64,000 nt of DNA from Escherichia coli. Lineage in GTDB: Bacteria; Pseudomonadota; Gammaproteobacteria; Enterobacterales; Enterobacteriaceae. Location of the stretch: the NCBI RefSeq assembly GCF_003790525.1, contig NZ_CP033635.1; one strand, given 5' to 3'. Shown here piece after piece: positions 60,880 through 61,436 of the stretch (position 1 is its first letter; the number at the start of each line of letters is the position of its first letter). Made by a program: the position numbers and the translations under genes. The notes beneath the pieces were generated by a model, which saw nothing but the letters and a program-made list of their open reading frames with translations, was not told the origin of the DNA and made no database searches.

Positions 60880-61436
60880 AGGATGAATTCCTTTTCATAA
60901 TCCCGATACAGTTGATAATTACGGCACAATCATTTTTTTTATGAATGATTGGAGTGGGGCATATTCGCAAAATAAATTTGTTAGAGAATTTTATATTAAT
61001 TGGTTGTGCGAATGTGTTATTAAATGTCAAACGATTTCAGTTTGTAGCCAATAATATTAATCGCGCGGATTTTAATGATCGGTGTCAATCAATGTCAAAT
61101 GTTTCACCGGATAAAGGCCCGGGGCAGGGAAAGATAAATATTCAGTTGAGTGATGTTTTATTGCGAAGTTTGCGATGCTGATAGAAAAATTTAAATAATT
61201 AATTATGTTTCAAGCATTGATATGCGGTAATTCATTGTTGATATTGATACATCATTATTTAATTTGTACCTGCTTTTCAGAATTTAGCCTGGCATGTGCG
61301 CTAAAAAGAATAGAGGAGATTGAATATATAATGTTAAGAACGTTATAAATATTCGATCTCTGAAACAGGCTCCTGCATGTGCCAGCAGGAGCGAGTAAAT
61401 CGTGAGTGGCTGTAATTACAGCGACGAGAAAGGAAC

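Follow-up and report, generated by a model that had tools for sequence, protein, structure and literature searches.

Gene Content and Operon Identity

The window analyzed here, a stretch of 64,000 nucleotides from Escherichia coli, carries on its minus strand a lipoprotein gene and an adhesin gene downstream of yibL. In the direction of transcription, the genes and the gap between them are:

61437-61799, minus strand: yibL (NCBIfam YibL, E = 8e-57)
60880-61436, minus strand: the whole yibL-sadB gap, proposed cis-regulatory region of the sadB-TAA (sadBA / ehaG / upaG) operon
60196-60879, minus strand: sadB ortholog (inner-membrane lipoprotein, DUF3251, SadB/YajI family), first gene of the operon
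55503-60152, minus strand: YadA-like trimeric autotransporter adhesin (TAA; EhaG/UpaG positional ortholog), ORF of 1549 aa

The lipoprotein gene encodes a product of 227 aa whose translation contains the lipobox LAGC followed by D. A phmmer comparison matched it over residues 23-227 to the crystal structure of SadB from Salmonella, PDB 4C47 (E = 7.3e-69), and the TAA gene lies 43 nt downstream; the first-pass annotation had placed the gap upstream of a lipoprotein-adhesin operon, and both observations agree with it. Orthologs of the lipoprotein are named DUF3251 or SadB/YajI family lipoprotein in RefSeq, and the positional orthologs of the TAA are named YadA-like, EhaG or UpaG. The order mtlA-mtlD-mtlR-yibT-yibL-sadB-TAA-lldP is present in the AR_0013, CFT073, and O157 records and agrees with the report of Grin et al. 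(2014; PMC3953254), who have described a sadBA-type operon between the mtl and lld operons. The operon downstream of the gap is this already described sadBA-type (ehaG/upaG) unit.

The sadB gene was found in 4149 of 5426 complete E. coli genomes with 73-100% DNA identity. The copy in strain UM146 (L006 787-1500) contains an internal stop and is listed as a pseudogene, and in strain ET650 (L009 2501-3527) an IS1 element has truncated the gene. The lipoprotein gene is therefore decaying in some strains in which the adhesin gene is kept. The copy in O157:H7 F6321 (L004 3169-3185) has the conserved start followed by a stop at codon 3 (ATG AAC TAG); RefSeq starts this gene at an ATT located 15 nt downstream, and a related metagenomic copy (L023) has TTG where O157:H7 has the codon-3 stop. 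With 4650 nt, the adhesin ORF of the window is shorter than that of AR_0013 (4938 nt), in which the upstream gap is 100% identical to that of the window; copy-number variation in the repetitive stalk is the likely cause of this difference in length.

Origin of the Locus and Diversity of Haplotypes

The arrangement mtlR-yibT-yibL-gap-sadB-TAA, with lldP on the other side, occupies the same site in Escherichia, Salmonella, and Pseudocitrobacter, and no mobility genes flank the operon in the AR_0013 and CFT073 records. In K-12 (L003 3029-3399) the whole gap and sadBA are missing. A REP-like sequence (TGCCGGATGCGGCG...) follows directly after the yibL stop, and homology to the window (55050-55560 and 61250-61470 were compared) resumes at a hairpin just past the adhesin stop codon. 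K-12 has likewise been reported to carry a deletion of the whole sadBA unit (PMC3953254). The same site in three genera and the deletion in K-12 together show an ancestral, hypervariable locus and not a recently gained island, and the earlier view of the adhesin genes as horizontally acquired is not supported.

The gap was compared across 15 lineages comprising several E. coli haplotypes, other Escherichia, Pseudocitrobacter, and Salmonella. The gaps collected came from six E. coli haplotypes, four other Escherichia lineages, two Pseudocitrobacter species, Salmonella enterica, and one further enterobacterium. SadB homologues at a greater distance (37-44% identity) either occur in a different genomic context or are a degraded O157-type copy, and thus add no independent footprint. 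Gap copies of the window type (≥90% identity) occur in about 1,220 of the 5,426 complete E. coli genomes, and copies with 60-80% identity occur in 659 of them.

Within E. coli, the gap and sadB (window 60196-61436; loci L004-L008, L010, and L019) exist as at least four deeply divergent haplotypes with identities to the window type of about 93-96%, 69%, 66%, and 42%. Some haplotypes are common to other Escherichia: that of O145 is 97% identical to Escherichia sp. E1V33, and that of ECO21 is 83% identical to E. marmotae. The neighboring YibL protein is identical or nearly so, with two protein accessions among nine E. coli records. The depth of the haplotypes at the adhesin locus suggests, from sequence comparison, either old balanced alleles or recombination between species.

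Composition of the Gap

The yibL-sadB gap (60880-61436, 557 bp, read on the minus strand) has a GC content of 0.345 compared with 0.504 across the whole window. Only 5.4% of the 557-bp windows in the 64 kb match its AT-richness, and most of these belong to one other low-GC block at 31-37 kb. That other strongly AT-rich stretch (about 31250-36650; GC of about 0.30 over 5 kb) is presumably the waa LPS-core gene cluster, by synteny with CFT073. The equivalent gap in CFT073, of 558 bp, is the longest among about 43 intergenic gaps in the annotated homologous stretch of 49 kb. Gap length (489-560 bp) and GC content (0.29-0.36) are held within narrow limits in 15 of 15 lineages. These values, the exact coordinates, and the lack of a conserved ORF uphold the earlier claim of an unusually long, AT-rich, non-coding gap. 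The same description mentioned A/T tracts and short inverted repeats; 15 pairs of inverted repeats are indeed present, and the A/T tracts were overstated, with just three runs of five or more (T8, A5, and A5).

E. coli genomes carry the gap in one chromosomal copy, and it is no repeat element. RefSeq annotates nothing in it in any record examined. In AR_0013 a locus-tag number is skipped exactly at this place (AM340_RS07510 to AM340_RS07520); an earlier annotation may have placed a gene in the gap that was later withdrawn.

Conserved Blocks and the Predicted Promoter

An alignment of the gap from 12 lineages has a mean column identity of 64%, with pairwise identities down to 31-42%; the gaps of the window and O157, both E. 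coli, are 42% identical. Column conservation of ≥85% is limited to four blocks, and the DNA between them is saturated with substitutions.

61286-61272, minus strand: conserved block, distal motif, TAAATTCTGAAAAGC
61105-61087, minus strand: conserved block, -35 region, GAAACATTTGACATTGATT
61079-61065, minus strand: conserved block, -10 region, ATCATTAAAATCCGC
60885-60895, minus strand: Shine-Dalgarno block, AAAAGGAATTC, with the conserved part AAAAGGAATT at 60895-60886, located 5-6 nt before the sadB ATG (60879)

Constraint across genera falls on only about 40 of the 557 bases of the gap, a short list of targets for mutation. The two middle blocks belong to a predicted promoter, here called PsadB, that would produce a long leader.

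61069-61098, minus strand: predicted sigma-70 promoter PsadB, -35 TTGACA (61098-61093), 18-nt spacer, -10 TAAAAT (61074-61069)
60880-61062, minus strand: predicted 5' UTR of about 183 nt, from a TSS predicted at G61062 or A61061 by the position of the -10
60963-61013, minus strand: predicted UTR helix H1, ATTCGCA (61013-61007) x TGCGAAT (60969-60963), RNAalifold, 9 sequences
60927-60951, minus strand: UTR hairpin/palindrome H2, CAATCATT-N9-AATGATTG, 8 nt, 100% complementary

PsadB agrees with the consensus at 11 of 12 positions and was the sole minus-strand promoter-like match in the gap in a promoter scan; the last 60 nt before the sadB ATG contained no such site on that strand. The same scan recovered the same promoter site in O157 (11/12) and in Salmonella (10/12). 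In 15 of 15 lineages, including Salmonella and Pseudocitrobacter, TTTGACA is invariant, TAnnAT is conserved (as TAAAAT, TAGAAT, TAGCAT or TAACAT), and the spacer is 17-18 nt. This conservation is above background, as the sequence around the promoter is 31-71% identical among lineages. The 18-nt spacer in the window exceeds the optimal length. PsadB lies in a patch of 57% AT that is less AT-rich than both flanks, with an AT content of 64-77% over about 270 bp upstream and of 68-73% in the leader. From the conservation and the scan we infer that TTGACA-18-TAAAAT is probably the promoter of sadB. Promoter-like matches are common in such AT-rich DNA (7 found compared with 2.9 expected), and plus-strand matches at 61170-61199 and 61217-61245 agree with the consensus at 9 of 12 positions each.

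The -35 region (61082-61104) recurs in the UTR at 61014-61036 on the minus strand as a direct repeat of 23 nt, with 78% identity and a spacing of 68 bp. The downstream copy is without a -10 hexamer, and a pair of operators is one possibility for this repeat. A GATC is present in the promoter spacer of some haplotypes only. Dam-dependent phase variation would need GATC sites, yet these are not conserved among the haplotypes, and it was rejected.

Predicted Leader and Ribosome-Binding Site

In 12 lineages the -10 and the ATG are separated by 163-202 nt. The suggestion in the first-pass annotation that the gap may hold a long 5' UTR is supported to the extent that the sole promoter conserved across genera implies, through its predicted TSS, one of about 183 nt. 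The leader of the window folds no better than shuffled sequences (MFE of -24.5 kcal/mol, z = -0.41). RNAalifold on the nine sequences that can be aligned predicted three small helices, in which three pairs have two-sided changes that keep pairing; in H1 this applies to two of the six pairs (AU to GC and GC to AU). The core CATTCAT of H2 is invariant in nine of nine aligned sequences, and related palindromes in a shifted register were seen by eye in Pseudocitrobacter, E. fergusonii, and Salmonella. The covariation is weak, its score being reached by 17-18 of 500 shuffles, and the nine sequences represent only about four lineages. A conserved leader structure is a hint only. A small hairpin predicted at 60904-60880 has the Shine-Dalgarno sequence in its loop.

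Distal Motif

61272-61286, minus strand: conserved distal block, candidate distal operator, core AWTCYGAAAA at 61283-61274

The core AWTCYGAAAA is invariant in 11 aligned lineages and is present in three further lineages. In all of them it stands 171-183 bp upstream of the -35 (mean 177.6, sd 4.5). The distance from the yibL stop to the motif is more variable (sd 17.2 compared with 4.5; Brown-Forsythe p = 0.0003), the distance from the -10 to the ATG has an sd of 11 (p = 0.10), and these p-values are indicative only because the lineages are not independent. The motif is absent from K-12, which is without the sadBA operon, and it therefore goes with the operon rather than with yibL. Elsewhere in the window its pattern occurs at chance level. 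A -10-like hexamer is located directly before the motif, with no -35, and no convincing promoter was found there on either strand. Comparison by eye with the consensus sites of RcsB, CRP, FNR, Cra, IHF, ArgR, KdgR, and Fur showed a fit only to half of an RcsB box (TCYNA) and to lineage-specific partial palindromes, which are leads and give no assignment. Tentatively, the conservation and spacing of the motif would suit an operator whose regulator loops to the promoter or blocks the spreading of H-NS, and which sets the natural on-signal of the adhesin. The distal motif may be the only new part of the region.

Stem-Loop, Palindrome and Search for Small Transcripts

Two further elements are located between yibL and the promoter.

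61369-61392, minus strand: GC-rich stem-loop 3' of yibL, GCTCCTGC-N8-GCAGGAGC, exact 8-bp inverted repeat
61186-61206, minus strand: AT-rich palindromic segment, ATAATTAATTATTTAAATTTT, homologous to a putative TosR (PapB-family) motif

The stem-loop was the sole inverted repeat tested by folding, and the segment 61340-61440 that contains it folded at -28 kcal/mol (z = -2.96 compared with shuffles). It is kept in most Escherichia haplotypes and not in E. fergusonii or Salmonella. The U tail is poor, and a consensus terminator scan does not call it. The stem-loop is probably the yibL terminator or an RNA-stabilizing hairpin. The palindromic segment corresponds to a predicted TosR motif in strain CFT073, ATAATTAATTATTTAAATTTTCAATCAG, located 299 bp upstream of the c4423 ATG (MEME p = 7.4e-7; PMC5956150, Table S2); this site is a MEME prediction in that paper and not a demonstrated binding site. 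The segment is not conserved outside the window-type haplotype.

The first-pass annotation had also considered a small RNA, and the results speak against one. With a permissive threshold, Rfam gave no real match in the window or in six homologous loci (a chance U4 match in the window scored 21 bits against a gathering score of 46). Scans of the window, O157, and Salmonella found no intrinsic terminator inside the gap and hence no promoter-plus-terminator pair, the only conserved promoter in the gap points into sadB, and the UTR folds like shuffled sequences.

One ORF of 78 aa had been listed in the gap as lacking a recognizable domain, and it has no NCBIfam match.

60945-61181, plus strand: 78-aa ORF, antisense to the promoter and UTR, rejected as a gene

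This ORF is shortened to 36 aa in strains UM146, KY1497, and CFT073, relatives with 93-96% identity, and other haplotypes lack it. Across the haplotypes, neither strand holds a common ORF in any frame. A 47-aa ORF and other small ORFs of the gap have no family match and are not conserved.

Regulation and the Case for H-NS

Reports also exist on the regulation of this operon, and they concern strains in which the gap shares 96% (CFT073) or about 42% (O157) identity with that of the window. The part of PMC5012682 that cites Totsika et al. (2012) lists UpaG among H-NS-repressed autotransporters, and a statement in PMC12525524, citing the same work, is that deletion of hns derepresses upaG. Overexpression of TosR in CFT073 raised c4423 by a log2 fold change of 5.1, which puts it among the 25 most strongly induced genes (PMC5956150). 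According to the CFT073 record, c4423 is C_RS20890, the sadB ortholog directly upstream of upaG. In Salmonella, STM3690 (sadB) was 4.2-fold down in an anaerobic fur mutant in which hns was 3.1-fold up, and it is listed as Fnr-regulated (PMC3212961). Grin et al. have reported that sadBA is silent in culture and that the conditions for its native expression are not known (PMC3953254).

Regions such as this one had been described in the first-pass annotation as typical targets of H-NS silencing, and the evidence is divided. The AT-richness of the gap and the derepression of upaG, as quoted in the statement above, are in favor. Against it, the high-affinity H-NS nucleation motif TCGATAAATT is not enriched in the gap (one match at ≤2 mismatches; 359 of 500 shuffles equal this). 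The 10.5-bp periodicity of AA/TT, a proxy for curvature, is weak, with a fraction of 0.060 of the shuffles reaching or exceeding the value of the window, and it is inconsistent among the homologues (0.01-0.99). AT-richness is the only intrinsic support for H-NS at the gap. The case for H-NS here consists of this AT-richness and the genetics cited in those two papers, from which we infer direct binding.

Proposed Model and Alternative Explanations

The reading that we consider probable is that the gap is the cis-regulatory region of the sadB-ehaG/upaG operon, with the architecture described above and repression by H-NS. The stem-loop would end or stabilize the yibL transcript. The AT-rich DNA of about 270 bp that follows would carry the distal motif and the TosR-like palindrome. 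A single near-consensus sigma-70 promoter would then start an AT-rich leader of about 183 nt, with a good ribosome-binding site at its 3' end. With a core promoter this close to the consensus, the silence in culture must be due to repression. Most likely, H-NS would bind the AT-rich DNA on both sides of the promoter and silence it, by analogy with bgl and proU, and AT-binding antagonists (TosR, for example) or a factor acting at the distal motif may lift the repression.

The same features were weighed for a second transcription unit, either from an upstream promoter P2 at the conserved GAAAA, possibly activator-dependent and with a UTR of about 395 nt, or as a small RNA, independent or antisense, encoded between PsadB and the distal motif. 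The -10-like hexamer before the motif is present in most lineages (TAAATT, TAAAAT, CATAAT, GATATT), and within its pattern nAnAnT the A at position 4 and the T at position 6 are invariant and the A at position 2 nearly so. The constant length from motif to promoter (sd 4.5 bp) and the two plus-strand matches would also suit such a unit. However, neither the window nor Salmonella has a -35 hexamer or a TG extension upstream of the P2 hexamer, and the window itself has GAAAAG at the proposed start. The sequence between motif and promoter is not conserved, no Rfam family or intrinsic terminator was found as described above, and the plus-strand matches reach just 9 of 12 positions in DNA where such matches are common. 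A second unit is accordingly given a low probability. Control that is mainly post-transcriptional, or exerted by a specific factor rather than H-NS, appears about equally improbable. Here the leader structure (H1 and H2) or the CATTCAT site would gate translation or Rho-dependent termination. In the leader helices, which contain the three pair-keeping changes, 96.4% of cells are paired compared with 31-47% in slid controls; CATTCAT is invariant in the nine sequences with its loop bases included, and the UTR length is fairly constant among lineages. These points are offset by a fold no better than that of shuffles, a covariation score reached by 18 of 500 shuffles with nine sequences from about four lineages, helices that cannot be aligned in O157, E. 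fergusonii or Salmonella, and a Shine-Dalgarno sequence that is in a loop and not sequestered.

It is also conceivable that the gap has no function of its own; it would be AT-rich DNA scarred by recombination, bordering a hypervariable adhesin locus, and sadB would be transcribed from a promoter near the start codon. Most of the gap is in fact not conserved, the haplotypes differ by up to about 58%, and the similarity between them falls right after the yibL stop or 72 bp past it. Yet length and AT content are kept in every genus examined, the promoter and the distal motif are invariant at a fixed spacing, and the last 60 nt before the ATG are without a minus-strand promoter-like site, which makes an empty gap very improbable. 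Least probable of all, and hardly to be credited, is that the 78-aa ORF or another small ORF of the gap is a real gene; the 78-aa frame is open in this strain, but it matches no family, shrinks to 36 aa in close relatives, and is annotated in no record.

Relation to Known Systems

The operon of the window corresponds to sadBA of Salmonella and to ehaG and upaG of E. coli in locus, in the lipoprotein gene placed 43 nt before the TAA gene, and in its position between mtl and lld. The deletion in K-12, the silence in culture, and the H-NS repression reported in the passages quoted above match as well. Reports on the ehaG/upaG loci of E. coli include those of Valle et al. 2008 and Totsika et al. 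2012. The published accounts of sadBA that were examined leave the promoter, the leader of 183 nt, and the distal motif undescribed, and the window represents one of at least four divergent gap haplotypes.

At bgl and proU, silencing by H-NS acts through elements upstream and downstream of the promoter. The gap resembles them in a strong core promoter with AT-rich DNA on both flanks (70-77% upstream and 68-73% in the leader), and in expression that is reportedly silent as long as H-NS is neither removed nor antagonized. Unlike what is expected of H-NS sites, the nucleation motif is not enriched in the gap and the curvature signal is weak and inconsistent, and the likeness is one of layout. Long intergenic regions with multiple inputs are known from regulators and operons of surface structures, as at csgD-csgB and flhDC. 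The gap is similar to these in being unusually long and AT-rich, with a long leader and distal cis elements, but the genes that flank it are co-directional and not divergent. A further likeness is to the anti-silencing of UPEC adhesin operons by PapB and TosR, as c4423 is induced by TosR and its AT-rich motif is kept at 61186-61206 of the window (PMC5956150). The tosR gene is, however, carried by a minority of strains, and the site is predicted only (by MEME).

Significance

Overall, the general reading in the first-pass annotation holds, and the gap is largely ordinary and already known in kind, being the control region of a described and, in the passages cited, reportedly H-NS-repressed adhesin operon. 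Aside from the distal motif and the conserved promoter, it is a textbook case of long, AT-rich DNA that controls a silenced operon for surface proteins, and no new principle emerges from it. The adhesins UpaG, EhaG, and SadA belong to uropathogenic and enterohaemorrhagic E. coli and to Salmonella, and the natural conditions that induce them are not known (PMC3953254). The coordinates of the conserved promoter and the distal motif are useful small additions in this respect, and the motif offers a concrete bait for finding the missing regulator of the adhesin operon.
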